Assembly (NCBI GenBank): GCA_016432365.1
Contig: CP066686.1
Span: 192,355-256,354 of the forward strand
From: Candidatus Woesebacteria bacterium
GTDB taxonomy: Bacteria; Patescibacteriota; Microgenomatia; UBA8517
Direction of reading: 5' to 3'
Length of the DNA stretch: 64,000 bases
Below the pieces are notes generated by a model. The model did not search any database. It had not been told where the DNA came from and saw nothing but the letters and a program-made list of their open reading frames with translations. Below, one piece after another: positions 10,179 through 50,736 of this stretch (positions are counted from its first letter, which is position 1; each line of letters starts with the position of its first letter). The position numbers and the translations under genes were made by a program.

Positions 10179-10190
10179 GAGGCTATTATA

Positions 10191-20308: not shown

Positions 20309-21264
20309 ATTCCGGTGGCGGAAACTCCGCTATACAATACCCAATAGACCAGAATCACCCAAAGGCCAACAGCAATAATGAGTGCGCGATCAGACAGAAG
20401 AAGTTTTTCCGGAGTCTCGCTTTTACCCTCAAAAATTAAATATTCATACCTCATTATTCCAAAAATTGTTACGGGAATTGTCAACATTAATAGTTTGTTG
20501 ATAGTTGTGGTTCTGGAAAGCTCAGCAAGAACCAGCCAAAACGGAAGTGTTGCTTTTGGGCTTTCAAAAAAAGTGAAAAGGGCCCAACTCATCCAGGAGG
20601 CATTTCCAAACATGGTTACATACGAATTTAGCAAATCCTTTTTATAATTGCCCAAGCTTTTTCTTGTAAGAATATCGCTTTCCTGGGATAGATTAAGCTC
20701 GGCACGCCTTTTCCCCGAAGCCAGAAAGAGAGCCACAGAGATTACACATAGTAAGAACCAAACCGACAGGTGCGCATCGATTACGAAAGCCCCTGCGTAT
20801 ACACGCATGATAAACCCTGTAGCAATTATCAAAATGTCGAGTATTGCAATATTCTTAAGCCCCAAGCTATAAAATAATTGAAGTACGAGATACCCTAAAA
20901 TAGTAAAAAAGAAAAGTGAGTTCAAAGAAACGCTAACAAGGAGCGCCAAAATCCCAAGAAAAATAGCTTCAAAAAAAGCCAAGATAACGGGCACTGAGCC
21001 GGAGGCGACAGGACGGAATTTTTTGGTAGGATGAAGTCTGTCTCGTTTTGCATCGAGTATGTCATTAAAAACATAAGTGGCAGAAGTGGCAAAGTTAAAA
21101 GCAATAAAGGCAAAAAAAACTTCCCTGAAGGCCACTTTGTCAAAGAACATTCCGGTCAGAAATAGAGCTGCGAAAAGCCCCAGGTTTTTTAGCCAATGAA
21201 GGGGGCGCGCCAGCATGATAGCCGAAAGAACTAGATTGTCTTTTTGGGTCTGTAAGTAAGCCAT
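20305..21264 (-). CDS. UbiA-family prenyl-phosphate transferase (decaprenyl-phosphate phosphoribosyltransferase-like)
   Basis: 319 aa polytopic membrane protein with the NDILDAKRD aspartate-rich motif. Confidence 0.7.
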   Translation of the reverse strand: MAYLQTQKDNLVLSAIMLARPLHWLKNLGLFAALFLTGMFFDKVAFREVFFAFIAFNFATSATYVFNDILDAKRDRLHPTKKFRPVASGSVPVILAFFEAIFLGILALLVSVSLNSLFFFTILGYLVLQLFYSLGLKNIAILDILIIATGFIMRVYAGAFVIDAHLSVWFLLCVISVALFLASGKRRAELNLSQESDILTRKSLGNYKKDLLNSYVTMFGNASWMSWALFTFFESPKATLPFWLVLAELSRTTTINKLLMLTIPVTIFGIMRYEYLIFEGKSETPEKLLLSDRALIIAVGLWVILVYWVLYSGVSATGI

Positions 21265-22301
21265 ATTATTAATCCTCCAATTAGTGTCGCTACACCGATC
21301 ATTGTATATATCTTTTCTCCCGTATTCAAATTAAGAGCAGCAAAACCCAGTATGCCGGTAATTATCCAGTAAAAAACGGCAACTTGAGATTTACTCATTC
21401 CTGCGTCGAGCAGTTTGTGATGCAAATGTCCTCTGTCTCCCCAAACGGGAGACTTACCTGAAGCAATTCTTCTAATGATTGTATAGCCGGTATCAATTAA
21501 GGGGACCCCTAAAACTACCATTAATGCTCCAACTTTAGTTGTAGAAAGTATAGATAAGATTGCAAGAAGGTATCCAGCTAAAGTGCTTCCGCCGTAACCC
21601 GGCATGATTTTTTGAGGGAAAATATGCCAAGGCAGAAACCCTAAGTAAGATCCCGCCGTAATGGCTGCCAAAATTATGACCGGCCACTGGGTTATATCTG
21701 CCGAAAACTTCAAAGAAAGAAAGGCAATAGTTAAGGCACCAATTACAGTTACTCCGCTCATTTGACCGTCGACCCCCTTAGCCCCCATGTTTACAATGTT
21801 CATCAAAAAAGTTATCCAAAAAAGCGCAAAAAGGTCGCTCAAAATCCAGATGCTATGATTTCCAAAAAAAGTAAAATTTATTTGGGGCTGACTCAGGTTG
21901 ATTGTTCCCCCTAGGGGGTTACTAATAAAAGAAATTCCAATTCCGGCTATAATAGGGGACGCAGCGGCCGTAAAACCCAAAAGCAATCTCAGATATGGAT
22001 TAAGATTATATTTGTCGTCAAGAAAACCCATTAAGACCAAAATAGCGGCCCCAATCAGAATTCCGGCAATATGCTTATCTATTGGTAAAAAAAGCAGAGT
22101 GGAGATAATTAGTGCAATAAAAATCGGGATTCCTCCACCCCTGGGGACAGGATATGTATGAATGACTTTAGCGTGTTTGTTGAGTTTTGGGTCATCAATA
22201 ATACCCAACTTGCCGGCAAATTTGATGACAATGGGCGTTGCCAAAAAAGACAGAATGGCAGCCGTTATCCAAGGTACGAAGAAAAGATTGTTGATATTCA
22301 T
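21231..22301 (-). CDS. Glycosyltransferase family 4 polyprenyl-phosphate sugar-1-phosphate transferase (MraY/WecA/TagO-like)
   Basis: 356 aa polytopic; DDxxN motif (MGFLDDKYNL) and MraY/WecA-like core; overlaps the UbiA gene by 34 nt, so operonic. Confidence 0.8.
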   Translation of the reverse strand: MNINNLFFVPWITAAILSFLATPIVIKFAGKLGIIDDPKLNKHAKVIHTYPVPRGGGIPIFIALIISTLLFLPIDKHIAGILIGAAILVLMGFLDDKYNLNPYLRLLLGFTAAASPIIAGIGISFISNPLGGTINLSQPQINFTFFGNHSIWILSDLFALFWITFLMNIVNMGAKGVDGQMSGVTVIGALTIAFLSLKFSADITQWPVIILAAITAGSYLGFLPWHIFPQKIMPGYGGSTLAGYLLAILSILSTTKVGALMVVLGVPLIDTGYTIIRRIASGKSPVWGDRGHLHHKLLDAGMSKSQVAVFYWIITGILGFAALNLNTGEKIYTMIGVATLIGGLIIWLTYRPKKTI

Positions 22302-22307
22302 TACATG

Positions 22308-22670
22308 CTATCCGAAAAAACCTACTAAAAAAACTATTTTTAATATAGTGATTGTTATCAAAAGTGAAAAGAGAAAAGCTCCTGAAATCAAAATTTTTTT
22401 AGAAAAAACATCCTCAGTGATCAAAGCTAATCCTGAGTTGGTCAATGTTATTACAATTGAGACGATTGGAGCAAAGAACAGGTTTAAAACGGGTACCAAC
22501 TGTGATTCACCGAAGGGTCTCCCATAAAAAAGAGGAACGATTGGGGGGAGAATGTTTTTGAAAATAAATATAATGGCAATTGAGGAAAAACCGAGTCCAA
22601 GGGATGCGTAAAAGAAACCTCTGAAAGGAGTTTTGTGCCATGACGAGGCAATTTCCGTATTAGTAGACAT
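22308..22670 (-). CDS. Small hypothetical polytopic membrane protein
   Basis: 120 aa, three or four predicted TM helices; no domain recognised. Confidence 0.35.
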   Translation of the reverse strand: MSTNTEIASSWHKTPFRGFFYASLGLGFSSIAIIFIFKNILPPIVPLFYGRPFGESQLVPVLNLFFAPIVSIVITLTNSGLALITEDVFSKKILISGAFLFSLLITITILKIVFLVGFFG

Positions 22671-22691
22671 TGTATGGAGATTTTAACACAA

Positions 22692-24188
22692 CTAAGGTAG
22701 CAAGGAGTATATGTTTGCCCCATCTATCTGCTGAATGAGAATATATTTGTTGGTGATTAACGGCGCTAGTTCCGGATAGGTGTTCCCGGGAGTAAGAATA
22801 ATAAACTTTGGAGGATTAACCGAAACTTGTTTGGCGACTTCACTGCGGGAAGAAAAATCGCTTACATGATAAGGAACGACATATTTAATTGGAGGAAGCC
22901 TTCCGGCCAGGGCGTAGACCGCAGCCGAATCCGGGTCCCACATGAATACCCGGTCAGTTTTATGGCTCGATTGTGACAAGAACACGGCTATTTTGTAATT
23001 TCTATTTGTCGTAGAAGAAAATCCGGAAAAATATTGATCCTTACTTATTTTGTGAGTTGCGAAATTTATAAAGCGCGCGTAATAACTTGCGGTGGGGTAA
23101 AGGTAGAACTTATAAAATACAGGGACTGCAAACGCTACCATTAGAGGAATCACTACCAGAGATTGTTCAACACTTTTGTCAGTAAAAAACATAGCAAGAA
23201 GGAACGAAATCGGAGCCACGGCTTGTATAAAATAATGGGGATACGGACGTTCCGAAAGAGTTACTGCGAATAAAGCAAAGAGTGTCCATATTACGAATAA
23301 AATGAATTTTTTTGAAAGTTTTTTTCTAAACAACCATACAACAACAGAGCCAATTAAAACGACTAACGCCCTAGTCAAAAGCGGGGCATTTCTGACAATG
23401 AACGGTTTTTGAACATCTCCCGGTCTGAAACTGCTTAGGTATCCGACGTTTTGCAAATATGCCGCCTTTATATATTCTGGTAGGGATCCGGCAAAATAGT
23501 ACCAGATAAAAGTTAAAAGAATGGGTAGGGCAAACCCAAGAATAAGAATAATGGTGTTTTTGATTATATTTTTCCATTCCTTTTTAATGTCACCGGTTAT
23601 TAACCAGTAGGCAACGATTATCGGCGCGTCGAAGGCGGCAGGGATTTTAAAGAGTGTGCCAAGTCCCAAAAAGATTCCGGCAAGAAATACCCTTTTGGCT
23701 GTAAGTCCTCTTTCTAGCAGTATTAAAAAGGCAAGAATGGTAAAACCGATCATAAAAAGTTCGGAGTTAACGGTATTGCCCTCAAGAAGCGGAAGAGTAG
23801 TAAGTGCGGCAAAGATAATTGTAGAAATCTTTTGTGCTCCTTCATTTCTTTCGAAAAATGTTTTTGATAGCTTGTAAAACCAAACAGTGGAAACAATCAT
23901 CCAAAAGGCAAGAGCTACTTTAAACCAGAATAAGTTGTCGGTAACTGCGGCGGTTAAATAGAGAAGTGGGGGCTTATTGTCATGGACGTCTTTATATAGA
24001 GTAAGTCCTTGTCGAACCCCTTGTCCCATTGTCAGATACACCATTTCGTCACCGTAATAGTAAGGTTCAAAAAAGGAGGGAATTCTAAGAACTAAAATTA
24101 AAAACAACAAACCACAAAGCCAGTTTGGAATGTTTGGAAGATGTAGAACGTCGCCGATTTTGTGAAGTTTTTGCCAGGTGGATTTCAT
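22692..24188 (-). CDS. GT-C fold glycosyltransferase family 39/83-like (ArnT/PMT-type) membrane protein
   Basis: 498 aa, many TM helices; first-loop DE motif (YYYGDEMVYLTMG) typical of ArnT/PMT enzymes. Confidence 0.6.
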   Translation of the reverse strand: MKSTWQKLHKIGDVLHLPNIPNWLCGLLFLILVLRIPSFFEPYYYGDEMVYLTMGQGVRQGLTLYKDVHDNKPPLLYLTAAVTDNLFWFKVALAFWMIVSTVWFYKLSKTFFERNEGAQKISTIIFAALTTLPLLEGNTVNSELFMIGFTILAFLILLERGLTAKRVFLAGIFLGLGTLFKIPAAFDAPIIVAYWLITGDIKKEWKNIIKNTIILILGFALPILLTFIWYYFAGSLPEYIKAAYLQNVGYLSSFRPGDVQKPFIVRNAPLLTRALVVLIGSVVVWLFRKKLSKKFILFVIWTLFALFAVTLSERPYPHYFIQAVAPISFLLAMFFTDKSVEQSLVVIPLMVAFAVPVFYKFYLYPTASYYARFINFATHKISKDQYFSGFSSTTNRNYKIAVFLSQSSHKTDRVFMWDPDSAAVYALAGRLPPIKYVVPYHVSDFSSRSEVAKQVSVNPPKFIILTPGNTYPELAPLITNKYILIQQIDGANIYSLLP

Positions 24189-24213
24189 TCTGATTTGAGT
24201 ATACTATATTGAT

Positions 24214-25167
24214 ATGCAAAAAATCATAGTAACGGGTGGGGCGGGGTTCATTGGTTCCCATCTTTGCGATTCTCTTCTTGAGAACAATTACAAAGTAGTA
24301 TGTTTGGATAATCTTTTAACGGGATCTAAAAAAAATATAGAACACCTTCTTGATAACCCCAACTTTGAATTTGTTGATGGAGACGTTATTCAACAGTCAA
24401 CAGTTAACAGTCAACATTTCAGCGGTGTTTCCTATATATTTCACTTGGCTTCCCCCGCATCTCCGGTTGATTACCAAAGTTACCCGGAAGAAACACTTAT
24501 GGTCAATTCTTTGGGAACAATCAACATCTTAGAATTAGCAAAAAAAGAGCGAGCAAAGGTTCTCATTGCTTCTACATCAGAAGTTTACGGCGACCCCTTA
24601 GAACACCCGCAAAAAGAAACGTATTGGGGGAATTCAAACTCGTTTGGCCCACGTTCTTGCTACGACGAGAGTAAACGTTTTGCCGAATCGGCAACTTATG
24701 TTTATCTGCAGAAATATAATTTAGACGCAAGAGTGGTGAGAATTTTTAATACTTACGGACCAAGAATGCAGGTAAATGACGGACGGGTGATAAGCAACTT
24801 TATAAACCAGGCAATTAAAAATGAGCCGATAACTATCTACGGTGATGGCACACAAACACGCTCTTTTTGTTTTGTTAGCGACTTGGTCGAGGGTCTTATT
24901 AAAGCAATGTTTACCGAAGGAACAACCGGTGAAGTTTTTAACCTAGGAAACCCGGAAGAATATTCGATGAACGATCTGGCCAAAAAAATCAAGGAAATGA
25001 CAGATTCCGCATCTGACATAGTAAACAAAGAGCTTCCGCCGGATGACCCTAAGCAAAGAAGGCCGGACATAAGTAAGGCCGAACGGTATTTGAATTGGAA
25101 ACCCACAGTAAAGGTTAACGAAGGGCTTCAAAAAACGATTGACTACTATAAAAACCTGAGTATTTAA
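24214..25167 (+). CDS. UDP-glucuronate decarboxylase (UDP-xylose synthase), NAD-dependent SDR
   Basis: 317 aa; IIVTGGAGFIGSHLCDSLL..VVCLDNLLTGSKKNIEHL...FEFVDGDV, catalytic YDESKR; close to eukaryotic and bacterial UXS. Confidence 0.85.
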   Translation: MQKIIVTGGAGFIGSHLCDSLLENNYKVVCLDNLLTGSKKNIEHLLDNPNFEFVDGDVIQQSTVNSQHFSGVSYIFHLASPASPVDYQSYPEETLMVNSLGTINILELAKKERAKVLIASTSEVYGDPLEHPQKETYWGNSNSFGPRSCYDESKRFAESATYVYLQKYNLDARVVRIFNTYGPRMQVNDGRVISNFINQAIKNEPITIYGDGTQTRSFCFVSDLVEGLIKAMFTEGTTGEVFNLGNPEEYSMNDLAKKIKEMTDSASDIVNKELPPDDPKQRRPDISKAERYLNWKPTVKVNEGLQKTIDYYKNLSI

Positions 25168-25173
25168 CTAAAA

Positions 25174-25851
25174 ATGGATAGAGTTGCGAAAAATATTATC
25201 GATTCCTATAGCCAGGGTCCTGACGCCATTTATGCAGATTGGAAGGAGAGAGAGGCACTACCGCCTTACGAAGCCGTTGATATTTGGAGGGATGTTAGCA
25301 GGCTTTTTTTTAGAGACAAAAATGCCGACCTCATATTTTTGAGTCCGACATCTAATTTACCAACACACGAAGTTGCTATTTTTAAAGACGAAGTTCAAAG
25401 TAGAAAGGGTAGTACGATATTTTTGGTTGGTGATTTAGCCAATTTGAATCCAAAAGATGAGCTAGCACAAGTTGCAAACTTGCAAGACGATAAACAAAAG
25501 TTTATTTATTTCAAATGGGATGCCAGGAATCTTCCTGTAAAAAAAGGAACCGTCGATTCAATTTGGGATAGAAGAGGGTGGATATGGCACAGTGCCAATT
25601 TAGAAGATAATAGAGAAAAAGCAACATTGGATTCACTCATTAATTACAGGAAAATGCTCAAGAAGGGTGGAATAATCATATTAGATGCTGACTATGGAAT
25701 GAAAAGTGGACAAAGAGGTCATTCGACAGATTCTGTAGTTAGGACCAGGATAAGAGAAGATTTTTTTGAAAAGCCAGAAATCAAGAAAATGTTTGACAGT
25801 TATTACATAGGTGAAGACCAGAAACGTGTTTTAGTTTTGATAAAGAAATAG
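25174..25851 (+). CDS. Hypothetical protein, possible class I SAM-methyltransferase-like fold
   Basis: 225 aa; DARNLPVKKGTVDSIW resembles MTase motif II/III, but no clear glycine-rich motif I; low confidence. Confidence 0.3.
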   Translation: MDRVAKNIIDSYSQGPDAIYADWKEREALPPYEAVDIWRDVSRLFFRDKNADLIFLSPTSNLPTHEVAIFKDEVQSRKGSTIFLVGDLANLNPKDELAQVANLQDDKQKFIYFKWDARNLPVKKGTVDSIWDRRGWIWHSANLEDNREKATLDSLINYRKMLKKGGIIILDADYGMKSGQRGHSTDSVVRTRIREDFFEKPEIKKMFDSYYIGEDQKRVLVLIKK

Positions 25852-25864
25852 CCACACTTTTTCA

Positions 25865-25991
25865 GTTACCCTGTATTCTATCCTGCAGTTCATGAATTGC
25901 GAAAGAAGTCTTTCTTGAGCAACCGAATGAACTAAAGGATATAGTACAGAGTAAATAACTTTCATACCTTCTCGGTTACTCTGTACTCTAT
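25865..25991. repeat. Three copies of a ~17-nt motif gttacYctgtaYtctat (two direct, one inverted) between convergent genes
   Basis: 25865-25881 gttaccctgtattctat; 25941-25954 atagtacagagtaa (inverted); 25975-25991 gttactctgtactctat. The inverted copy and third copy form a ~14-bp stem. Confidence 0.5.
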
Positions 25992-27515
25992 GTATTTACC
26001 TAGCATTAGACGTGTGTGAGCATCGATGCCGGGTAGAGCGGAAAAGAAAAACCCAGCAATCGGCATTAATATAAATTCAAATGGTGTAAAAATTTGTCTC
26101 CAAACGGAAACTTCTTTGGGCCTTGCTGGTTTTTGGATGTTGTCGATTACAAGCATAATGACCAGGAAAACCAGAGAAATCGTAAGGATGAAAGAAGAGA
26201 GTTTGGGTACAGTGTAGCCCAGTGCTGTACGTCCAAAGGCAGGATTAAGAAGTGTTGGTAGCGTTAAACCGATTGTAATAATAAACCAGTTAACTGGCCA
26301 CAGAAAATGTGCCCAAATCACTTGGAATAGGCGGGTGGTTTTGTCCCAAAAAGGAACGTCGCGAGCCAACAAATAACTTTTTATAATCCATGGATCATCA
26401 CTTACTCCCCAGGCCCATCTTTGTATTTGCTGATATTGATTTTGCAAAGTTTTCCAAAATGAAGAAGATTGGGCCGCATCAGCCATTAGAGGCAAGTAAA
26501 TCGGTTCTACCTCGATTCCACCACCGCTTTTATAGAATGCTTTGAAGAATATTCCCCAGTCTTCAGGAATTTTATCAGGGTCCCAATAGCCCACAGAATC
26601 GAGGAGTTTAAATGAAAGTGAGTAATTTTGAGCGTTTATGAGTCTGTCGTGTCTTGGAAGAAGAGAGAGGTTCCAAATTGTCATCAAGGTATTTGGGACG
26701 CGTGTAATTGCGGGAATTTCCCATATATTGTTATAGAACATGACAGCAGGTTGCCAAAAAGTTTTGTACCGTTTGGGGTTATCCAAGAATTTGTAAGTTA
26801 AATTTGCAAAATGCTTAGGATGAAACTTGTGGTCTGCATCACAGCTGGTTACTGTTACATAGTTGAGGTCGATTTTGTTTCGGTCGATATAGTTTTTCTT
26901 TATCCAAATAGCCGCAAATCTTTCGTTACTGGCTTTCCCCGCAACCTCTCCCATCTCCAGTTCGTGGGTGGTTACAAATATATGATCGAAATATTTCCCA
27001 AATTTAGCTTTTAACTCTTTGCTTTTAGCGTTTCGCGATTCCCTCGTCTCTTTTCCTTCCATGGCAAAAACCGGGATTATATGTTTAGTCGGGAATTCCT
27101 GATCGGCAAGCGACTTGAGGGTTCTTTCCAAAATGTGAACCGGTTCGTTATATGTAGGAATTATTACGATATGCCGTACTCTTTCCCAGTCGGGGAACCC
27201 GCGAACATCTCCCATCCAGTCGTAAATCTTGGCCGACTGAATTTTGAGGTGTGAGACGATTGAGGAAATTGCAATCTGAAGTGATTGATAAAACCAATAA
27301 ATATTGAAAAAAAGTATAAAGTAGGCAACGACAACAGGAATAACCAGGATTCCCCAGTACGGGAAGAGGATAAGGTTCCAAGAGACCATTCCCGGCAAAA
27401 TTTCCAGCAACCTTAGGATACGTTTCTCATGACGAATGATAAAGTTACGCATATTACCTTTTCTTGCCCCGCAACCTATGCCCTTGCGACGCAAACGCGT
27501 AGCATTTGGGTGCAA
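25962..27515 (-). CDS. Processive family-2 glycosyltransferase (cellulose/chitin/hyaluronan-synthase-like), polytopic
   Basis: GT2 motifs IPTYNEP, SCDADH and QQIQRWAWG (Q-x-x-RW processivity motif); N- and C-terminal TM helices; likely start at internal Met 27452. Confidence 0.8.
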   Translation of the reverse strand: MHPNATRLRRKGIGCGARKGNMRNFIIRHEKRILRLLEILPGMVSWNLILFPYWGILVIPVVVAYFILFFNIYWFYQSLQIAISSIVSHLKIQSAKIYDWMGDVRGFPDWERVRHIVIIPTYNEPVHILERTLKSLADQEFPTKHIIPVFAMEGKETRESRNAKSKELKAKFGKYFDHIFVTTHELEMGEVAGKASNERFAAIWIKKNYIDRNKIDLNYVTVTSCDADHKFHPKHFANLTYKFLDNPKRYKTFWQPAVMFYNNIWEIPAITRVPNTLMTIWNLSLLPRHDRLINAQNYSLSFKLLDSVGYWDPDKIPEDWGIFFKAFYKSGGGIEVEPIYLPLMADAAQSSSFWKTLQNQYQQIQRWAWGVSDDPWIIKSYLLARDVPFWDKTTRLFQVIWAHFLWPVNWFIITIGLTLPTLLNPAFGRTALGYTVPKLSSFILTISLVFLVIMLVIDNIQKPARPKEVSVWRQIFTPFEFILMPIAGFFFSALPGIDAHTRLMLGKYIEYRVTEKV

Positions 27516-42269: not shown

Positions 42270-43238
42270 ATGAGTATTAAAAAAATTACCCTCTTGATAT
42301 TAGGCATCGCAGTTGTATTTTTTTTGATTTTCCTATATGTTTTTAGATCGCAAGTTCATATAGCTTCGAAATTTTTGTTTCCTGATATAGCTCAAGTGAG
42401 GTCTGATAGCAACCGCACCAACTTTTTGATTTTGGGTATTGGAGGAAAGGACCATACAGGAGGAGACCTAACCGACACAATAATGCTTGTTTCGGTAAAT
42501 CTAAAAGGTCAGGGAGTGGATGTAGTTTCAATTCCCAGGGATTTGTGGATTCCTGAAATCCGCGCCAAAATTAATAGCGCCTATCATTACGGAGGCACGG
42601 ACTTGGCAAAGTCTTCGGTAGAGAAGGTTACGGGAATAAAGATCCAATATTCAGCGATAGTGGACTTTTCAGCCTTTAAAGATATTGTAGATGCCCTTGG
42701 CGGAATTCAAGTGGATGTAGAAACAGGCTTCTCTGATAAATTGTATCCAATTGCTGGGCGGGAAAACGATACATGTAGCGGGGACAGAACTCTTGCCTGT
42801 CGTTATGAGACGGTAACTTTTGTACCCGGTCTTCAATTGATGAATGGCGACACAGCTTTAAAATTTGTCCGTTCGCGACACGCCGAAGGACCAGAGGGGA
42901 CAGATCAGGCGCGTGAGGCCCGACAACAAAAAGTTATAGATGCCATCAAGAATAAATTACTTACGCCTCAAATTTATCTTTCGTTGAATATGGACAAGGC
43001 AATATTTAATGTACTAAGAAATTCTGTCGAAACGGATGTTGATGATAAGACAGCAGCAATTATTGCCAGAAAAGTTTTTGATTCCAGAAATTCAATAAAT
43101 AAATATTTAATTCCGGACGGTTTTTTGATCAACCCCCCAATTACAAGTAGTTATGATAAACAATACGTCTTAATACCAAAAGAGGGTAATGGGAAATGGG
43201 AGGAGATTCAAAAATGGATCAGTAGACTTCTTAAGTAA
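42270..43238 (+). CDS. LCP family (LytR-CpsA-Psr) cell-wall glycopolymer ligase
   Basis: N-terminal TM; RTNFLILGIGGKDH, DTIMLVSV and SIPRDLW motifs. Confidence 0.8.
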   Translation: MSIKKITLLILGIAVVFFLIFLYVFRSQVHIASKFLFPDIAQVRSDSNRTNFLILGIGGKDHTGGDLTDTIMLVSVNLKGQGVDVVSIPRDLWIPEIRAKINSAYHYGGTDLAKSSVEKVTGIKIQYSAIVDFSAFKDIVDALGGIQVDVETGFSDKLYPIAGRENDTCSGDRTLACRYETVTFVPGLQLMNGDTALKFVRSRHAEGPEGTDQAREARQQKVIDAIKNKLLTPQIYLSLNMDKAIFNVLRNSVETDVDDKTAAIIARKVFDSRNSINKYLIPDGFLINPPITSSYDKQYVLIPKEGNGKWEEIQKWISRLLK

Positions 43239-43240
43239 AA

Positions 43241-44899
43241 ATGCGAGATCTATTAAAAAAAATACGCAAAGAACCCGTTTGGATACTTGTGGCGGTACTG
43301 GGTTGCATTATCTACTTTCTTTTTGATAGTCACATAATCAAACCCGACATAAACGGAAATTTAACAACAGGGGAAAGCACCTATGGAGATTTGCCGTTTC
43401 ATTTGGCGACTGTTTCCCGAATGGCCTACACTGGGACCCTTCCTCCGGAAAACCCATTATTTTCAGGAATTCCCTTGGTTTATCCATTTTTTATAAACTT
43501 TTTATCGGCTGTAATTGTGATTTGGGGATTTAGTCTCAGATCTTCAATAATTTTCCCGGGTATGATTTTTTCTATTCTCATGATCATATCTCTTTACTTT
43601 TTTTACAAAAAGTTGACCGGACGCAAGTCGGTCGCCTTTTTGGGAACACTTTTATTTTTCCTCAATGGTGGCCTTGGCTTCTATTATTTTTTGAAAGACG
43701 TTGCATTAAAGGGAAAACTTGAAAATTTTATAACCAACCCTGGCGCCTATCCGGATTACAGTCATTTATTCGGACAAAATATACAATGGTGTAATTTTTT
43801 ATCCCGGATATTGATTCCCGAACGGAGCGTCCTTTTGGGAATTCCGATGGGAATTTCTATTTTGTATATACTTTTTTTGAAGGAGAAAGAGGACAAAAAA
43901 AATTTAGATTGGTGGTTTATTTTAGCAGCAGTGTTAACAGGTCTTTTGCCGCTTTCCCATACTCATACGTTTATAGTTTTTAGTCTCTTGATTCCGTTTT
44001 TGGCTTTTTTTGAGTTGCGCATAAGTAATTGGAAAGAATGGTTAAAAAGATGGTCAATTTTTGGGGCGATAACTCTGGTGGTTGCAGTTCCGCAATTAAG
44101 GTTAATTTTTTTCCATTTAAATACCAGCTCGACCTTCTTTAAATATCACATCGGTTGGATGAGCAATCCGGGAATATTGGAATTTACAATGTTTTGGTGG
44201 AAAAATACGGGTGTATTAATTCCCCTATTAATTTCATCTCTATTTTTTATCAAAACCTACAAATTATTGACCAGACTGGTTTGGTTTTCGTTTTTTGTTT
44301 TTACAATCATAAATTTATTTATTTTCCAACCATTTGATTGGGACAACGTTAAGTTTCTTTTTTGGTTTGCAATCATCGCTTACGGGGCAATTGCTTTTCT
44401 TTTGGTAAAATTATGGCAGAGCAAAATCTTTTTTGGAAAAATACTCGCGGCAATTCTCGTTGCTTCACTAACTCTGTCTTCACTACTGTCTATATATCGT
44501 GAGATGAATGTAAGCTATCAGTTGTTTTCTAAGGAAGAGGTTGATTTAGGATCGTGGGTTAGGGAAAATACACCGTTTGATTCGTTATTTTTGACGGAGT
44601 TCACTCACAGGAGCTTTGCAAGCAACTTAGGCGGGAGAAAAATATTAATGGGCTATCAAGGTAGTCTTTGGGTTCACGGAATAAAATATGGGGACAGGGA
44701 AAGGGATATTAAAAATATATATTTAGGTGCCAGCGACGCGATGAACCTTTTGTATAAATATGATGTCGACTATGTTGTAATAGGTCCGGGAGAAAGGAAT
44801 GTGCTAAAAGCAAGCGAAGATTTTTTTATAGAAAATTTCTGTCTTGTTAAAGCTACTACAAATTACAGGATTTATTCTGTAAAATGCGGCATCGAATAA
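43241..44899 (+). CDS. Large polytopic membrane protein, probable GT-C-fold glycosyltransferase with C-terminal extracytoplasmic domain
   Basis: 552 aa, more than 10 TM helices, conserved-looking loop GESTYGDLPFHLAT; family not identifiable by eye. Confidence 0.4.
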   Translation: MRDLLKKIRKEPVWILVAVLGCIIYFLFDSHIIKPDINGNLTTGESTYGDLPFHLATVSRMAYTGTLPPENPLFSGIPLVYPFFINFLSAVIVIWGFSLRSSIIFPGMIFSILMIISLYFFYKKLTGRKSVAFLGTLLFFLNGGLGFYYFLKDVALKGKLENFITNPGAYPDYSHLFGQNIQWCNFLSRILIPERSVLLGIPMGISILYILFLKEKEDKKNLDWWFILAAVLTGLLPLSHTHTFIVFSLLIPFLAFFELRISNWKEWLKRWSIFGAITLVVAVPQLRLIFFHLNTSSTFFKYHIGWMSNPGILEFTMFWWKNTGVLIPLLISSLFFIKTYKLLTRLVWFSFFVFTIINLFIFQPFDWDNVKFLFWFAIIAYGAIAFLLVKLWQSKIFFGKILAAILVASLTLSSLLSIYREMNVSYQLFSKEEVDLGSWVRENTPFDSLFLTEFTHRSFASNLGGRKILMGYQGSLWVHGIKYGDRERDIKNIYLGASDAMNLLYKYDVDYVVIGPGERNVLKASEDFFIENFCLVKATTNYRIYSVKCGIE

Positions 44900-47334
44900 T
44901 AATGTTCACATTTATTAAAAGAATGTTAAGCAGTAGGATTTTTTTATTACTTTTTTTTGGTTTATTTTTTAGGGTCGTGCTCTCTTTTTTTGGGACATTG
45001 AATCTGGATCAGGGAACATTTGTTGCCTGGAGCATTAACCTTGCCCGGGATGGTTTTAGAAATTTCTATAACGGATGGAGTGATTATCTACCCGGATACC
45101 TTTATGTTCTTTGGCTCTTGGCGAAGATCAATCTGTTTGGGATATTTCCGACGTCAATTCTTTACAAACTACCGGCGATAATTTCCGACTTGTTGACTGG
45201 GCTTATTATTTATAAGATATTGCGTAAATCCAAGGGCGAAAAATGGGGACTTGTTGGAAGTGCTATTTATATTTTTAATCCTGCTGTTTTTGCAAACTCT
45301 GCTTTGTGGGGTCAGGTTGATTCTTTGACATCATTGTTCTCGGTGTTGTCTGTTTATCTATTGCCATTTAGTCTTCACCTTTCTGCTGTAGGTCTAGCGA
45401 TTGGAACCCTCGTAAAACCGCAAACAGCCTTTATTTTTCCTGTAATTCTGTTTTTACTAATCAAAAATAAGAAAAAGTTTTCAGATTTCCTGGTTTATGG
45501 TATCACGGGTTTAATTGTTTTTGTTGCCGGATTCATTCCTTTTTGGAACCACGGTAATTTGATATCTTTTATTTTTGAGAGATTGGGTTTATCTCTAAAT
45601 CAATACCCATATACTTCAGTAAACGCCTTTAATTTTTGGGGACTTATCGGGCTATGGAAACCTGACAATGTCGTCTTCCAAGTTTGTGGATATGTTTTAT
45701 TTATAGCTGCGACAGTGTTTTTATCCTTTAAATTGTGGAAACAAAAGAACCCTGAATATTATTTAACATCTTTTATATTTGCTGTAAGTTTTGTTTTTTT
45801 TACCCGGATGCACGAGAGACATCTTCTTCCATTATTTGCACCCCTTGCCATCGTAGCGATAGAGAATCCGGTTCTTATGATTCCTTATCTTAGTTTTTCT
45901 TTAACTTATGTTGCAAATCTTTACTATGCGTATGTTTGGATTTCATCTAACTTCAAAGAGGTGTTTTCTGATTTTTTTATCAAAATTCTTGAGCTTATTA
46001 ATATCGGATCAGTCTTTTTTATGTTTACCGTTATTGCTAAAAAAATAAATAAAACATGGTTGTGGTTTAAATATCCGTTTAATCGAGTATTTGGAAACAA
46101 AAAACAATCGATTGTAAAATACAAGTTACCTCAGAATAGTCTTTCTAAAAATAAAGCAAAATATATTTTAATTGGAATTTTGGCATTCGCATTTGTTACC
46201 AGAATATATAATTTAAATTCTCCTAAAACCGAATATTTTGATGAGGTTTACCACGCTTTTACCGCGAAGGTAATGATACACGCAGATGCCAACAAGGCTT
46301 GGGAATGGTGGAACACCCCGCCGGAAGGATTTGCTTACGAATGGACGCACCCACCTTTGGCAAAGTTGGGCATGGTAATGGGGATGAAAATATTTGGGGA
46401 AGATTCTTTTGGATGGAGAGTCCCCGGAGCAATTCTTGGTGTTGGATCGGTACTACTGGTTTATCTTTTAGCAAAATTTTTATTTAAAGATGAATTAACC
46501 GGGCTTTTGTCGGCTGCCGTCTTTTCTCTCGACGGACTGGTACTTGTAATGAGCAGGATAGGAATGAACGACAGTTATTTGCTGTTTTTTGTATTGCTGT
46601 CGATATATTTCTTTTTGCAGAAAAAAGATTTTCGGTCTGCAGTCTCATTTGGTTTGGCAATTTCTTCCAAGTGGTCGGCAATTTGGGCAATTCCAATTTT
46701 GGGGATTATCTGGCTAAAGAGGAAGAATAAATTTAGACTTTCAACTTTTGCGTTTTTTTTAGTTATTCCGTTTATCATATATCTTTCATCTTACATCCAG
46801 ATGTTCCTAACCGGTCATGGTCTTGATATCTGGTGGGGAATGCAGGAGCAGATGTGGTGGTATCACACGGGGCTAAAGGCAACTCATGCATATTCCTCTT
46901 CTTGGTGGAGTTGGCCTTTTTTGATTCGTCCTATTTATCTTTACACCTCCAATGAGGTGGCTGGTTGGGTTGCAAGAATCTATGCGATGGGCAATCCATT
47001 GGTTTTTTGGTTCGGTATGACCTCAGTTGTCATGGGATTCGTTTATGCGTTCATGGAAAAAAATAAAAAGATTGGATTTGTCGTATTTAGTTATCTGATA
47101 TTTTTTGTTCCTTGGGCACTCTCCCCGAGAATAATGTTTTTATATCATTACCTTCCTTCAATTCCTTTCTTAGCGATAGCAATTGGGTATATTCTACGCC
47201 GTAACCCCAAGTTGATTTTCCCGTTCTTAGTTTTTAGCTTTTCGCTTTTCCTTTACTTTTATCCTCATTGGATCGGTCTTCAAATCCCGTTATGGTTAGA
47301 CAGGGGCTACTATTGGGTAGCCTCATGGCGTTGA
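44884..47334 (+). CDS. Double GT-C membrane glycosyltransferase: N-terminal mannosyltransferase-like (DUF2029/PIG-M-like) module + C-terminal GT39 PMT/ArnT-like module (DEVYHA motif)
   Basis: 816 aa with about 20 TM helices. Second half begins with a TM then FDEVYHAFTAKVM (the DE motif of PMT-type enzymes). Alternative ATG at 44902. Confidence 0.55.
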   Translation: MRHRIIMFTFIKRMLSSRIFLLLFFGLFFRVVLSFFGTLNLDQGTFVAWSINLARDGFRNFYNGWSDYLPGYLYVLWLLAKINLFGIFPTSILYKLPAIISDLLTGLIIYKILRKSKGEKWGLVGSAIYIFNPAVFANSALWGQVDSLTSLFSVLSVYLLPFSLHLSAVGLAIGTLVKPQTAFIFPVILFLLIKNKKKFSDFLVYGITGLIVFVAGFIPFWNHGNLISFIFERLGLSLNQYPYTSVNAFNFWGLIGLWKPDNVVFQVCGYVLFIAATVFLSFKLWKQKNPEYYLTSFIFAVSFVFFTRMHERHLLPLFAPLAIVAIENPVLMIPYLSFSLTYVANLYYAYVWISSNFKEVFSDFFIKILELINIGSVFFMFTVIAKKINKTWLWFKYPFNRVFGNKKQSIVKYKLPQNSLSKNKAKYILIGILAFAFVTRIYNLNSPKTEYFDEVYHAFTAKVMIHADANKAWEWWNTPPEGFAYEWTHPPLAKLGMVMGMKIFGEDSFGWRVPGAILGVGSVLLVYLLAKFLFKDELTGLLSAAVFSLDGLVLVMSRIGMNDSYLLFFVLLSIYFFLQKKDFRSAVSFGLAISSKWSAIWAIPILGIIWLKRKNKFRLSTFAFFLVIPFIIYLSSYIQMFLTGHGLDIWWGMQEQMWWYHTGLKATHAYSSSWWSWPFLIRPIYLYTSNEVAGWVARIYAMGNPLVFWFGMTSVVMGFVYAFMEKNKKIGFVVFSYLIFFVPWALSPRIMFLYHYLPSIPFLAIAIGYILRRNPKLIFPFLVFSFSLFLYFYPHWIGLQIPLWLDRGYYWVASWR

Positions 47335-47380: not shown

Positions 47381-47770
47381 ATGGAAGAAATAGGAAGACC
47401 GATTATAAAGAGTTTCAAAGATTTAGAGATTTACACGGAAAGTTTTCAACTTCAGATAGAGATTGAAGAATTACTAAAAACATTTCCAGAACTAGAGAGG
47501 TATCTATTGGTTGATCAAATGAGAAGGTGTTGCCGGTCAATTCCCGCAATAATATCAGAAGGATGGGCGCTGCGTGATTCGGTGAAGGAGTTTAAGAATT
47601 TTTTACGAAGAGCTTACGGAAGTAATTGTGAAATGATAAACCACCTTATGCTTGCGAAGTATAAGAGTTATATAAAAATGGATGGTTATGCAGACGAACT
47701 TATAAAAAGATATGAAATATTGGGAATGAAAATCACTAAACTTCGAAACAATTGGCAGAAATTTAAATAG
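47381..47770 (+). CDS. Four-helix-bundle protein of the 23S-rRNA intervening-sequence family (TIGR02436-like)
   Basis: 129 aa; IKSFKDLEIYTESFQLQIEIEELLKTFPELERYLLVDQMRRCCRSIPAIISEGWAL...FKNFLRRAYGSNCEMINHLMLAKY fits the family pattern SF.DL.V......L...IY.LT..FP..E.Y.L..Q.RRA..SI..NIAEG. Confidence 0.65.
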   Translation: MEEIGRPIIKSFKDLEIYTESFQLQIEIEELLKTFPELERYLLVDQMRRCCRSIPAIISEGWALRDSVKEFKNFLRRAYGSNCEMINHLMLAKYKSYIKMDGYADELIKRYEILGMKITKLRNNWQKFK

Positions 47771-47843: not shown

Positions 47844-48188
47844 TTATGCCGGTCCTAGGACAAAATTTCCTTTCCCCAGAAAATATATAAGCAGTCCCAA
47901 GAACAAAATTATTATGAGGAAATAACCGACAGACCAGCCCCCCTCGTGTGGGAAAAAAAGATCAAAAGGATACGATGTAAAAATAGAAGTTTTAAGCTTC
48001 TTAAGGGAAGACATGGTTAAATAAAAAGCGGCATACACAATTATTGCCGTAGTGAGAACAACAATTATAAAAACATAATTGTTTTTAAAAAAATCTAATA
48101 ATGTGTTAAGAAGTGTGATCAAAGCGCCAGTAAGAGTGACCCCAAGATGACCAGTATTCCAAGTCCGGCTCCTGCCATTGTCGGCCAA
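47844..48188 (-). CDS. Hypothetical membrane protein (overlaps the 3' end of the next gene in another frame)
   Basis: 114 aa, three hydrophobic helices; 70-nt overlap with 48119-49051, so one of the two ends may be wrong. Confidence 0.3.
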   Translation of the reverse strand: MADNGRSRTWNTGHLGVTLTGALITLLNTLLDFFKNNYVFIIVVLTTAIIVYAAFYLTMSSLKKLKTSIFTSYPFDLFFPHEGGWSVGYFLIIILFLGLLIYFLGKGNFVLGPA

Positions 48189-49051
48189 TCCGTTCCTGAT
48201 TGTGGAAGAGTCGGAGGTGTTGCGGTTGGTGCGGGCGTGCCGTTACAAACACAGTCGCTTTCGGCTGTACAAGAGGGATTTCTACAAAAACCGTTGTAGC
48301 AGACAAGATCGCTTCCGCAATTAAAGTTGCTTCCACATGTTCCGCCGCATGAGTTTGGTGGAGCGGTTGGCGTAGCTGTAGGTGAGGCACTAGGACTTTC
48401 CGTTTGTGTGCCGGCCACAGTTACAGCAATAGAACAGTTAGAGGTTGAGTCACCTGCACCCTGGACGGTGGCTGTATTTGATATAGTTCCTGTCGCCGTG
48501 TCGTTTACGGACACTCTAAAGGCGGCCTGAGTATTTGTTCCCGCCAGAGTACATGTGACTTTTCTGGTCGAAGCCGCGTAGCCACACTCACTATCGCTAT
48601 CAACAAATGTAACTTCAGTTGGCAGGGTGTCCGTTATTGTAATGGCCTTCGTGGTATTGGGTGGCCCCGGTTTTACAACAAACACAATTTTATCGCCGAC
48701 ATTCACACTGGCGTTATTTGCAAGCAAGTTTGCATTAGAGATGTCGTAACTACCAGCGGTATTCGAAGCCACATCCTTGTACACTCTTTTGCTTGTACAA
48801 ACAATCACTCCGGGTGTTGCGGTGGGGGTTGCTGTTGGTGTCGCAGTTGGGGTGGGAGTAGCTGTTTGTGTGGTAAAAGTAAAAGAAAGATTGCAGGAAT
48901 TTTCGGACGCTTTTGGATTACTTGAAGGAACGTTCGGAGCCACTGACGTTTGACGCAACTGGTAAAGCCTGATAGCGGTAAAAATGGCAACACCTGCCAA
49001 GATTAGGGTAATAATTATTATTAAGCCGGTTGCAAATTTAGATTTTTTCAT
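48119..49051 (-). CDS. Surface protein: N-terminal signal anchor, (TATP)n linker, DUF11-type conserved repeat domain, Cys-rich module, C-terminal LPXTG-like motif (LPQSG) + hydrophobic tail
   Basis: 310 aa; ITITDTLPTEVTFV...TATVQGAGD resembles DUF11/TIGR01451; 10+ cysteines in the last 70 aa; tail LPQSGTDWPTMAGAGLGILVILGSLLLAL lacks a basic C-terminus. Confidence 0.5.
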   Translation of the reverse strand: MKKSKFATGLIIIITLILAGVAIFTAIRLYQLRQTSVAPNVPSSNPKASENSCNLSFTFTTQTATPTPTATPTATPTATPGVIVCTSKRVYKDVASNTAGSYDISNANLLANNASVNVGDKIVFVVKPGPPNTTKAITITDTLPTEVTFVDSDSECGYAASTRKVTCTLAGTNTQAAFRVSVNDTATGTISNTATVQGAGDSTSNCSIAVTVAGTQTESPSASPTATPTAPPNSCGGTCGSNFNCGSDLVCYNGFCRNPSCTAESDCVCNGTPAPTATPPTLPQSGTDWPTMAGAGLGILVILGSLLLAL

Positions 49052-49066
49052 AATTCAGGTGTTGCG

Positions 49067-49936
49067 TTATCTCCAAATCCTTACTATCTTTAACTCCGCT
49101 GAAACAACAAATGTCGTAACTCCTTCGGGAATGGTATAAAGATCACAAAACTCGTTTGGTACTCCACCAGGCCTTGTTGCAGATGTTTCTGGTCTTAATA
49201 CGCCATTAATTGTGAATCTGGCCATACTAAAAGGAAGATTACTGTTTGTGAATCCAGTAGCGCAAAAATTAACTTGGTTGCCACCCCTAAGTTTTGTAAG
49301 ATCGACATCATTCAATAATACCCAGTCTGTTGAATATGCTTTAATGTTTCGGCACTCGGCAATAAGCTTGAAATCAGTTTTACCTTCACAGTCATGAACC
49401 CATTCATAACTACAGCCACTATTTTTACAATAATCCAACAACTGACAGCGAGTACAGTTATCGTCTGGATCTGGGGGGTCACAGTTCAGATTATCCGCTT
49501 TAGAATTTGGATTTTGATTCTGTCCAGTTAGTAGCACTCCTGTGCCAATTCCGCCGACCAAAAGAAGTAGTCCTAAAATTGTGGCAATAATTTTACCCCC
49601 GCCGAATTTCTTTTTAGGAGAGGATGTTGTCATTGGGGAGAGGCTGCCATCCGGCACCTCCTGTGGTGCGGCGGAGCCAGCCTGTGTGGTATCCGGTGCC
49701 ACACTGGTGGTGGTTGTTGTAGTCGTCGTGGTTATTGGTGGTTCCGGTGGAACGCCAACCGGATCCGCCGGGGTGACGGGTGGAACGTTCTGAATATCCT
49801 GAACATCCTGAAAATCAGGAGGAAGCGGTGGAAGGTCGGCTTGGGGAAAAATAACAGGAGTTGCCCCAGAATCCGTTGGTTGGTTCTGGTTATTCTGATT
49901 TGGATCGTTTTGATTGGGCATGTTTTTGAAAAACAA
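49067..49936 (-). CDS. Pro/Thr-rich membrane-anchored protein with extracellular Cys-rich domain
   Basis: 289 aa; poly-Thr run (TTTTTTTTT), TM helix IIATILGLLLLVGGIGTGVLL, then a 10-Cys domain (CDPPDPDDNCTRCQLLDYCKNSGC...). Confidence 0.45.
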   Translation of the reverse strand: MFFKNMPNQNDPNQNNQNQPTDSGATPVIFPQADLPPLPPDFQDVQDIQNVPPVTPADPVGVPPEPPITTTTTTTTTSVAPDTTQAGSAAPQEVPDGSLSPMTTSSPKKKFGGGKIIATILGLLLLVGGIGTGVLLTGQNQNPNSKADNLNCDPPDPDDNCTRCQLLDYCKNSGCSYEWVHDCEGKTDFKLIAECRNIKAYSTDWVLLNDVDLTKLRGGNQVNFCATGFTNSNLPFSMARFTINGVLRPETSATRPGGVPNEFCDLYTIPEGVTTFVVSAELKIVRIWR

Positions 49937-49989: not shown

Positions 49990-50736
49990 TCAAGGAGATC
50001 GGCTAAATGTGTCGGAAATCGTGATTTTTCCTGTGCTTCCGTCAATTAATATATTTGTTCCGTCAGATATTTTTAATTTAGGCGAGACTATTGCAGGAAT
50101 ATTAAATTCGCGGGCTAAAATCGCTCCGTGGGAGGTTACTCCACCGTTTAACAATATAATACCAATACATTTTGAAAATTGTCTGGTATATTTAGTTCCG
50201 GCTGTCGGAAAAATCCCGATGCAATTTTTTGGAATTGTCTGCCTTTCGGAAGTAATATTTAGCGCTTTTCCTTTAACAACACCATCTGATACTCCGAATG
50301 TTTTGACCGTTTTTATAACCTGATCATTTTGCGCATCTTTTTTATTAGACCCGGTTATCATTTTTTTTACAGCTAGCCTGTATTTTCTAAGTTCTATCAG
50401 AGTATTAATGAGGTTGTTATTAGTCTTGGTGCCACGGTCTACCTTTTTATTAATGGAAATTATTTCCTGATTCGATTTGCCATAGGCCAAATACTTGGCA
50501 TAGAACTCGTTTAAATAACCAATCGCGATCGCCCGTGGATAGACCGTATTTATCAAATATTCTTGGTCTTTCGATGCTTTAATCTCAGAGACAAGTTTGT
50601 GAGCAAACTTAACATTTTTTTGAGGATTAACAACCCATTTAACAAAAAGATAGGTAGTTTTGATGATGTTTGTGGTTCCGAGCAGCTTCATTGCTAAGTC
50701 GTAGCTTGTTTTGTTTTCTATCAAAATGGATTTCAT
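49990..50736 (-). CDS. Standalone PEP-utilizing-enzyme mobile (phosphohistidine swivel) domain protein
   Basis: 248 aa; C-terminal GGVTSHGAILAREFNIPAIV...TGKITI matches the swivel domain of PEP synthase/PPDK/enzyme I, catalytic His in TSHGA. Confidence 0.6.
   Translation of the reverse strand: MKSILIENKTSYDLAMKLLGTTNIIKTTYLFVKWVVNPQKNVKFAHKLVSEIKASKDQEYLINTVYPRAIAIGYLNEFYAKYLAYGKSNQEIISINKKVDRGTKTNNNLINTLIELRKYRLAVKKMITGSNKKDAQNDQVIKTVKTFGVSDGVVKGKALNITSERQTIPKNCIGIFPTAGTKYTRQFSKCIGIILLNGGVTSHGAILAREFNIPAIVSPKLKISDGTNILIDGSTGKITISDTFSRSP

Follow-up and report, generated by a model that had tools for sequence, protein, structure and literature searches.

Why would a bacterium of the candidate phyla radiation (CPR) carry two membrane glycosyltransferase modules in a single polypeptide, and what would they glycosylate? 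The question is raised by an 816-residue protein (44884-47334, + strand) encoded in a 64-kb stretch of DNA from a Candidatus Woesebacteria bacterium (GenBank assembly GCA_016432365.1, contig CP066686.1, positions 192,355 to 256,354), here called the window, which is the whole sequence analysed and whose numbering is used for all positions. The protein, referred to below as the fusion, joins two modules of the GT-C fold class and follows a LytR-CpsA-Psr (LCP) phosphotransferase and a 552-residue membrane protein. Work on protein O-mannosylation in bacteria has been confined almost entirely to Actinobacteria, and the envelopes of CPR bacteria (Patescibacteria) are essentially uncharacterised.

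Based on family profiles, structure models and conserved gene order, we propose that the locus serves extracytoplasmic protein O-glycosylation, in which the C-terminal PMT module initiates, the N-terminal partner module dimerises with it and elongates, and a GT-C enzyme of the adjacent cassette adds further sugars. We give this reading an even chance of being correct.

Two GT-C modules of separate lineages in one protein

The open reading frame (ORF) starting at ATG 44884 matches the profiles of both modules. The fusion probably starts at the seventh codon (Met7, ATG 44902) and then has 810 residues, as in the identical NCBI protein P0001, which is named 'MAG: glycosyltransferase family 39 protein [Candidatus Woesebacteria bacterium]'. 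Residues are numbered from ATG 44884 unless marked Met7, in which case the number is lower by six.

The C-terminal module (46147-47334, + strand, ~11 transmembrane (TM) helices) is of the bacterial protein O-mannosyltransferase type (GT39/PMT). Residues 425-816 match PMT (E 1.3e-15), PMT_2 (1.7e-18) and PMT_4TMC (9.3e-16), all above the Pfam gathering scores, with PMT (PF02366) on residues 433-635 reaching 58.1 bits against a gathering score of 22.7 and PMT_4TMC (PF16192) on residues 649-799 reaching 58.3 against 32.4. The motif DEVYHA (D453-E454-V-Y-H-A, 46240-46257) aligns with the loop-1 catalytic motif 'FDEVH' of yeast Pmt1 (D77-E78), and its acidic pair D453-E454 (46240-46245), which lies in extracytoplasmic loop 1, shows no variation across 121 homologs. 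A profile of the module finds Pmt1 in PDB entry 6P25 at E 3.5e-12, and a Foldseek search with the model of the fusion returns Pmt4 (9i5k_A, E 2.3e-8) along with Pmt1 and Pmt2. To our knowledge, the pair of PMT and PMT_4TMC domains together with the DE motif has been described only for protein O-mannosyltransferases. No MIR domain was matched in the Pfam scan of the fusion, the corresponding loop having ~40 residues in the model. As large periplasmic domains are also lacking in actinobacterial Pmts (10.64898/2026.07.15.738315), the C-module fits the bacterial type.

The N-terminal module (44902-46038, + strand, ~12 TM helices) resembles ALG6, PIG-M and GT87 enzymes. When the N-terminal 400 residues of the protein are scanned alone, PMT_2 scores 30.8 bits against a gathering score of 26.1, and GT87 (PF09594) gives no match for this half even at E<=10. 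Some relatives in the N-family do score as GT87 and/or PIG-U, among them P0279 (32.2 bits), P0339 (32.3), P0263 (34.9) and P0253 (28.2), all above the GT87 gathering score of 25. An exhaustive search with the N-half yielded 3,903 relatives at E<=1e-3, many of them stand-alone proteins of ~400 residues. A profile built from the N-half and 49 stand-alone relatives (27-45% identity) matched glycosylphosphatidylinositol (GPI) mannosyltransferase I (GPI-MT-I; E 2.2e-11) and ALG6 (1.2e-10, over profile positions 29-384) in the PDB. Foldseek with the fusion model returned a second class of ~400-residue targets, comprising ALG6, PIG-U, ALG3, GPI-MT-I and PimE at TMt 0.58-0.67. Foldseek matches come without query ranges, and this class presumably belongs to the N-half, in agreement with the sequence-profile matches.

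In an AlphaFold2 (AF2) model of the fusion (mean pLDDT 83, pTM 0.62) the modules appear as well-predicted bundles of ~12 and ~11 TM helices and are connected by a linker (46039-46146, + strand; seven K/R, no D/E), which is of low confidence (pLDDT <50 at model residues 393-404). Both the N-terminus and the linker are rich in K/R and hence predicted to be cytoplasmic by the positive-inside rule, which places both catalytic loops outside. Comparison of the two halves by hhalign (probability 94.5%, E 8e-8, 239 columns) recovers a distant GT-C core only, so that the protein is a fusion of two lineages and not a tandem duplication. The first-pass annotation of this DNA had described a protein of about 20 TM helices, with a mannosyltransferase-like module followed by a PMT-type module with the DEVYHA loop. 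Its helix count was fair, Pfam, profile, topology and AF2 analyses agree on two GT-C modules, and the halves match different families instead of one single-module family.

A catalytic signature in the N-terminal module

The candidate catalytic base of the N-module is D42 (D36 in Met7 numbering, 45007-45009). In the AF2 model it opens helix 34-50, the first juxtamembrane helix after TM1, and in sequence it aligns with the Asp of the ALG6 motif 'YGDFEAQRHW', while the KPQ and HER motifs of the module align with FKQ and HEK of ALG6. The aligned Asp is chain residue 87 of a 562-residue ALG6 construct, which we take to be D69, presuming a tag of 18 residues on a native Alg6 of 544. D69 is the catalytic base of ALG6, and PIG-U, a non-catalytic relative by fold, has lost the DxD motif (PMC12653191).

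D42 is invariant in all sequences of three alignments (63/63, 50/50 and 141/141), and W49, W142-G-Q144, D146, K178 and H310-E-R312 are the other invariant residues of the module. Conservation was counted over 150 N-family representatives clustered at 50% identity, fused and stand-alone alike. In Met7 numbering D36 is kept in 141/141, W43 in 143/144, Q138 in 147/149, K172 in 147/148, H304 in 139/139 and R306 in 138/139 sequences. The Asp, Lys and His-Glu-Arg residues are thus preserved in 138-147 of the 150 representatives, a pattern that does not fit a non-catalytic membrane domain, the alternative envisaged for this half at the outset. In PimE, analogous roles are played by the catalytic D58 and by K195 and H321/H322 as ligands of the donor phosphate (PMC12041525). 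From the sequence, the Asp, Lys and His of the N-module may correspond to these residues (K178 to K195, H310 to H322).

Fused and split versions across genomes

Species-representative genomes were scanned with C-module patterns, a census that covers fused or PMT-bearing loci; locus counts out of 79 refer to the 79 best loci among no fewer than 590 stretches that matched. In all 79, which come from Woesebacteria, Microgenomates and Blackburnbacteria (39% identity), a single ORF is hit by both module profiles, and the same architecture recurs in more than 120 protein clusters of ~800 residues (60-83% identity). A strict test classes 37 of the 150 N-family representatives as N-then-PMT fusions; ten of ten further long representatives tested by Pfam are fusions as well, which raises the total to at least 47. 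The order is always N-then-C. Clostridiales fusions, one of 1,136 residues, are homologous in both halves. In view of these numbers and of a precedent in Paenibacillus (see below), the earlier description of the double GT-C architecture as unusual was overstated.

An unfused counterpart is found on a Daviesbacteria contig (L006), where a 404-residue homolog of the N-module (8898-10112 of the contig; 36% identity to the fusion, E 2e-50) overlaps an adjacent 405-residue PMT gene (10090-11307; 45%, 1e-98).

Two further observations were made during the census. In locus L007, 2 kb at the position expected for the N-module and PMT core (8659-10659) hold no called gene and are followed by a 177-residue PMT_4TMC fragment; this stretch, on a contig that also has an 84%-identical homolog of the 552-residue protein, might represent either a pseudogene or the effect of a frameshift or assembly gap. 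Moreover, L013, L016, L019, L023, L024 and ~25 more loci have Woesebacteria-type gene content and synteny and are titled 'uncultured Gammaproteobacteria bacterium' or similar, including one Alphaproteobacteria and one Pseudomonadales title. On such contigs of metagenome-assembled genomes these titles probably reflect mis-assigned taxonomy.

The operon and its orphan membrane protein

The first gene of the operon (42270-43238, + strand) encodes an LCP phosphotransferase of 322 residues with an N-terminal membrane anchor, identified by the hidden Markov models (HMMs) PF03816 (E 2.2e-37, 128.9 bits against a gathering score of 24.6) and TIGR00350 (2.7e-31, 108.9 bits against a cutoff of 62.3). 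It is followed by the gene of the 552-residue protein (43241-44899, + strand) across a TAA-AA-ATG junction, and the latter by the fusion across TAA-TA-ATG, given the Met7 start at 44902. From these 2-nt spacers, the three genes are predicted to form one tight, co-transcribed operon. A scan for consensus promoters and terminators inside the operon found nothing above chance, with 12 promoter-like sites against 18.4 expected and 6 terminator-like sites against 5.4. The arrangement of an LCP ligase and two large GT-C proteins, as initially annotated, was recovered with all three ORFs at their coordinates and lengths.

The 552-residue protein is predicted to adopt a GT-C_A fold with a C-terminal alpha/beta domain: the AF2 model (pLDDT 94.7, pTM 0.92) has ~11-13 TM helices and an extracytoplasmic domain at residues ~425-552. 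It matches no Pfam or NCBIfam family, and no family covers its membrane domain; across its own family, HMM matches are limited to DUF6798 on the C-terminal domain in 17 of 64 members and two faint Dpy19 matches. The family profile has no match among PDB sequences, and hhalign indicates no relationship to the N-family (10% probability) or the C-half (27%). By fold, Foldseek returns STT3 (E 6e-9), DPY19 (9e-9), PglB (1.6e-6), AglB (TM 0.56), AftA (TM 0.57) and ArnT (TM 0.54), the matches ranging from E 6e-9 to 1e-5 and from TM 0.43 to 0.57. A candidate catalytic residue, D50 (43388-43390), starts helix 50-64 after TM1 (13-31), and D50, H54, Y81, R195, H240, H242, W306, D368 and K371 are invariant in the 64 sequences of the family.

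The ~263 clusters of homologs come from Microgenomates, Daviesbacteria, Acidobacteriota and Clostridia, and all those with a source name are called 'hypothetical'. A homolog lies directly upstream of the fusion in 17 of the 79 loci and upstream of the split pair in Daviesbacteria, and stands alone on a Clostridia contig. In L004 (7001-10658), which belongs to a 3-Mb non-CPR genome, a 669-residue homolog immediately precedes a 524-residue PMT_2 protein from outside the N-module family, a hint at a more general pairing of the orphan family with GT-Cs of the PMT_2 type. Unannotated and confidently modelled as GT-C, the family is a candidate new glycosyltransferase family extending from CPR to Acidobacteriota and Clostridia.

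A variable cassette and candidate substrates

Gene order around the fusion is conserved as FemAB, UvrD, LCP, a variable slot, the fusion, then pilus genes and MurJ. In 64 of the 79 loci the LCP gene lies upstream of the fusion on the same strand, the exceptions being mostly truncated contigs. Between the two, 58 of these 64 loci hold at least one multi-TM protein (one to three genes): the 552-residue orphan, an N-like or PMT-like paralog, or, most commonly, an unassigned ~385-residue multi-TM gene on the opposite strand that is only weakly similar to the N- or C-module profiles. The LCP gene directly abuts the fusion in five loci, and the orphan occupies the slot alone in this window and its two closest relatives (L008 and L023). 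Judged from gene content, the slot appears to be a variable GT-C cassette.

Downstream, two genes convergent with the fusion encode tentative candidate substrates on the basis of sequence and synteny. The first (48119-49051, - strand) is a predicted Thr-rich surface protein of 310 residues (16% T); its N-terminus carries a membrane anchor, it contains T/P linkers, and it ends in LPQSGTDWPT and a hydrophobic tail. The general motif, LPxSGT(D/N)WPT and then a hydrophobic tail, looks sorting-signal-like. The second (49067-49936, - strand; 289 residues), likewise a predicted surface protein, begins with a region rich in Q/N/P/T and has a single TM segment and a C-terminal domain. Homologs occur at the same place in 70 (310-residue protein) and 62 (289-residue protein) of the 79 loci. 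Thr/Pro-rich ORFs are strongly enriched on the downstream side of the fusion, with 119 there against 1 upstream (~0.4 Mb each), and 61 of 67 loci have one at most 2.5 kb from the fusion stop. NCBIfam gives sub-threshold hints only for the Thr-rich proteins and a neighbouring 431-residue protein, namely an RrgB-type pilin domain (E 0.002, a weak match of the 310-residue protein) and a sortase-dependent surface-protein tail (E 0.067). The 64-kb window shows no sortase.

Two further genes lie in this region. One, at 47381-47770 (+ strand; PF05635, E 5.4e-24), separates the fusion from the Thr-rich genes and encodes a four-helix-bundle '23S rRNA intervening-sequence protein'; only two of the 79 loci have a homolog (L024 and L062, in opposite orientation in each), which suggests a sporadic insertion. 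A 248-residue protein (49990-50736, - strand) has only weak partial NCBIfam matches (E ~5e-12) to the C-terminal region of phosphoenolpyruvate (PEP) synthase and PEP-utilising enzymes, the rest of which is unmatched; a 211-residue PEP-utilizers gene occupies the same relative position in L007.

A second glycan cluster in the window

A separate cluster (20305-27515) encodes a UbiA homolog, a WecA-like GT4, a 498-residue multi-TM protein, a short-chain dehydrogenase/reductase (SDR)-type epimerase/dehydratase, a 225-residue protein without assignment and a 517-residue GT2. The UbiA homolog (20305-21264) scores above the equivalog cutoff for decaprenyl-phosphate phosphoribosyltransferase (216.4 against 207 bits), and the gene set suggests that this CPR genome has a route to polyprenyl-phospho-pentose donors. 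The 498-residue protein (22692-24188), initially called a GT39, contains the GT-C-like loop motifs YYGDEMVY and DNKPPLLY; the family assignment was rejected, there being no match in Pfam (E<=0.1), in NCBIfam (E<=0.01) or to the three module HMMs. The UbiA, GT4, SDR, GT2 and DUF4012 proteins listed for the window are indeed present. Their placement in one pathway with the fusion is not carried by the map, on which UbiA, GT4, GT2 and DUF4012 lie 17-44 kb away.

Proposed mechanism and alternatives

The sequences show the identity of the modules, the conservation of catalytic-type residues, the relation of fused to split versions and the synteny with LCP and Thr-rich genes; the donor sugar, the protein acceptor, the sequence of transfers and whatever part LCP plays are what we infer in the following mechanism. 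Three GT-C modules and a co-transcribed LCP phosphotransferase would form a glycosylation machine using polyprenyl-phosphate sugars, with the 816-residue protein acting as a covalent heterodimer. Initiation would fall to the C-module, which would transfer a first hexose (most likely mannose, with polyprenyl-phosphate-mannose as donor) onto Ser/Thr residues of Thr/Pro-rich secreted or wall-anchored proteins as these emerge from the membrane. The cytoplasmic linker would tether the N-module such that both active sites face outward, side by side. With its own candidate catalytic Asp and putative phosphate-binding residues kept, the N-module would most likely add the next sugar or sugars, as PimE does on mycobacterial mannoproteins. 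It would also serve the PMT as a dimer partner, which PMTs of eukaryotes and the mycobacterial Pmt seem to require. Finally, the 552-residue orphan in the variable cassette would probably add a further, lineage-specific sugar. Sequential transfers had been taken to follow from the fusion itself; they are plausible, and a Pmt1-Pmt2-like dimer role is equally compatible with it. Of the first-pass annotation as a whole, the double GT-C architecture is confirmed and the interpretation largely right; its rarity was overstated, and the shared pathway of the distant genes and the GT39 elsewhere in the window are not supported.

Several observations weigh against protein O-glycosylation as the function of the locus. 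The most conserved neighbour of the fusion is LCP, and classical LCP substrates are wall glycopolymers, not proteins. The NCBIfam Pmt equivalog NF058602 is not reached (72.4 bits against a cutoff of 800, with only residues 425-577 aligned), a score so far below the cutoff that orthology to the characterised actinobacterial Pmt is not established. At its pTM, the AF2 model gives no confident packing between the modules. Among the ~50 ORFs of the window there is no polyprenyl-phosphate-mannose or -glucose synthase of the Ppm1/GtrB type. Adjacency of the Thr-rich genes may be inherited gene order, as the whole region is syntenic in this clade. The mycobacterial GT87-like partner of Pmt reportedly lacks catalytic residues, so that partnership alone is no proof of a second transfer, and a literature search found nothing on protein glycosylation, O-mannosylation or GT-C enzymes in CPR bacteria.

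The alternative that survives best, possible though rather unlikely in our view, is the assembly of a wall glycopolymer or lipoglycan, in which the GT-Cs would elongate or decorate a polyprenyl-linked glycan outside the cell and LCP would ligate it to peptidoglycan; the PMT-like module would then act on a glycan or lipid acceptor, comparable to Emb, Aft and Mpt in mycobacterial arabinogalactan and lipoarabinomannan (LAM). The same-strand LCP gene upstream of the fusion in 64 of 79 loci and the 2-nt spacer behind it speak for this alternative, the region is set among FemAB, MurJ and other wall genes, and the variable GT-C cassette resembles a serotype-type diversification of glycans. The best TM-scores of the orphan include an arabinosyltransferase, AftA (0.57), and ArnT (0.54), and elsewhere in the window there are genes for a decaprenyl-phosphate phosphoribosyltransferase, a WecA-like GT4 and another GT-C-like protein; however, the UbiA/GT4 cluster is ~20 kb off and may not be linked. 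The PMT and PMT_4TMC pair with its DE motif speaks for a protein acceptor, which the conserved Thr/Pro-rich neighbours also fit, and in Daviesbacteria no LCP gene lies close to the split trio.

A second alternative, which we regard as unlikely, is a single transfer by the fusion, with a non-catalytic N-module that, like PIG-U, like Rv0051/ML2687c for mycobacterial Pmt or, in function, like Pmt2, would only stabilise the PMT, form an acceptor-binding cavity or bind the lipid carrier. In its favour, the mycobacterial GT87-like partner is needed for Pmt function despite its reported lack of catalytic residues, a Paenibacillus fusion has been read as evidence of dimerisation (both 10.64898/2026.07.15.738315), and the fold relative PIG-U is non-catalytic (PMC12653191). 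Conservation is also somewhat lower in the N-half, where the mean top-residue frequency is 0.69, against 0.79 in the C-half. Yet the Asp aligned with the ALG6 base, the Lys, the Gln and the His-Glu-Arg are invariant in fused and stand-alone proteins, whereas PIG-U has lost its DxD motif and Rv0051-type proteins are reported without catalytic residues. Furthermore, many stand-alone relatives of ~400 residues, presumably active enzymes, bear the same signature.

An artefact or trivial origin, whether two genes joined by mis-assembly or read-through or a single PMT gene duplicated in tandem, has a negligible probability: a split two-gene version exists in Daviesbacteria and both halves match PMT_2, but mis-assembly is ruled out by an uninterrupted single ORF in 79/79 independent species-level assemblies, complete genomes included, and in more than 120 protein clusters, and duplication by halves that share only the distant GT-C core and have their nearest solved relatives in different families.

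Returning to protein O-glycosylation, the operon and its neighbours might together constitute a complete, CPR-specific surface-glycoprotein pathway, a reading that we put forward tentatively and consider rather unlikely as a whole. A fused PMT initiator and ALG6/GT87-like elongator would then build O-glycans on Thr-rich, sortase-type anchored proteins, a swappable GT-C cassette would diversify the glycan between species, and the 552-residue orphan would found a new glycosyltransferase family. Attaching the glycoprotein or glycan to the wall would fall to LCP. In evolutionary terms, the catalytically intact fused partner would be ancestral, and the mycobacterial pseudo-GT87 partner of Pmt would have degenerated from it.

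Relation to known systems

For the orphan, the closest systems by fold are STT3/AglB/PglB, DPY19, AftA and ArnT, with which it shares an invariant Asp behind TM1 and a membrane domain followed by an extracytoplasmic C-terminal one, but no detectable sequence relationship; WWD/DK or other oligosaccharyltransferase (OST) motifs were not identified in the 552-residue protein.

The C-module resembles yeast Pmt1-Pmt2 (6P25) in profile, fold and DE motif, and in both systems two GT-C subunits lie side by side. Unlike Pmt1-Pmt2, the fusion has no MIR domain, its partner stems from another GT-C family and not from a PMT paralog, and the coupling is covalent. The best solved-structure relatives of the N-module family in sequence are ALG6 (6SNH) and GPI mannosyltransferase I/PIG-M (Gpi14), eukaryotic endoplasmic reticulum enzymes that act on lipid-linked oligosaccharide or GPI and are not fused to PMT; ALG6 has 14 TM helices and transfers glucose. 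PimE (9DM5/9DM7), a polyprenyl-phosphate-mannose-dependent alpha-1,2-mannosyltransferase, has ~12 TM helices, a catalytic Asp at the first juxtamembrane helix and Lys/His phosphate ligands. An Asp, a Lys and a His are likewise invariant in the N-module at similar places, and the module presumably matches the PimE fold (TMt 0.62), although PimE, unlike ALG6 and GPI-MT-I, gives no direct sequence-profile match. As a GT87 enzyme reported to elongate O-mannose on M. smegmatis proteins (PMC12757957), PimE provides a model for the proposed second transfer.

With regard to LCP, an enzyme of this family mediates glycosylation of a wall-anchored protein in Actinomyces oris, in the LcpA-GspA pathway (PMC6381275). 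At our locus an LCP gene heads the operon and stands beside Thr-rich LPxSG-type proteins, a likeness of gene neighbourhood alone. We know of no GT-C enzymes in the LcpA-GspA pathway.

The nearest functional precedent is a preprint of July 2026 (bioRxiv 10.64898/2026.07.15.738315), in which M. smegmatis Pmt co-purifies in pull-downs with a GT87-like protein (ML2687c/Rv0051/MSMEG_6899) that is said to be without catalytic residues and is read as a Pmt2-like partner. Homologs of the DivIVA-like or beta-propeller subunits were not seen here, no search aimed at them having been made. The same work mentions in one sentence Paenibacillus GT39 enzymes translationally fused to GT87 (UniProt V9WAU2), the sole mention of GT39-GT87 fusions found in our literature search, which returned none for CPR. 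The need of Pmt for a GT87-like partner has thus only just been proposed in Actinobacteria, and its pairing receives independent, Rosetta-stone-type support from proteins that are fused in Woesebacteria and Clostridiales and split but adjacent in Daviesbacteria. Common to all is GT39 coupled to a GT87-like GT-C, here covalently in 79/79 loci. The fusion differs from GT87 systems in that it stays under the GT87 Pfam model, and from the mycobacterial partner in that its N-module keeps the full invariant signature, so that the question of scaffold or second enzyme becomes directly testable. As a fusion of this kind had been noted once, what the present sequences appear to add is a catalytically intact-looking partner, an orphan GT-C family and nominated substrates. 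With its LCP gene, its variable GT-C cassette including the orphan and its conserved Thr-rich neighbours, the CPR locus goes beyond the mycobacterial and Paenibacillus cases; it points to surface-protein glycosylation in CPR/Patescibacteria and names candidates for the proteins that would receive the glycan.

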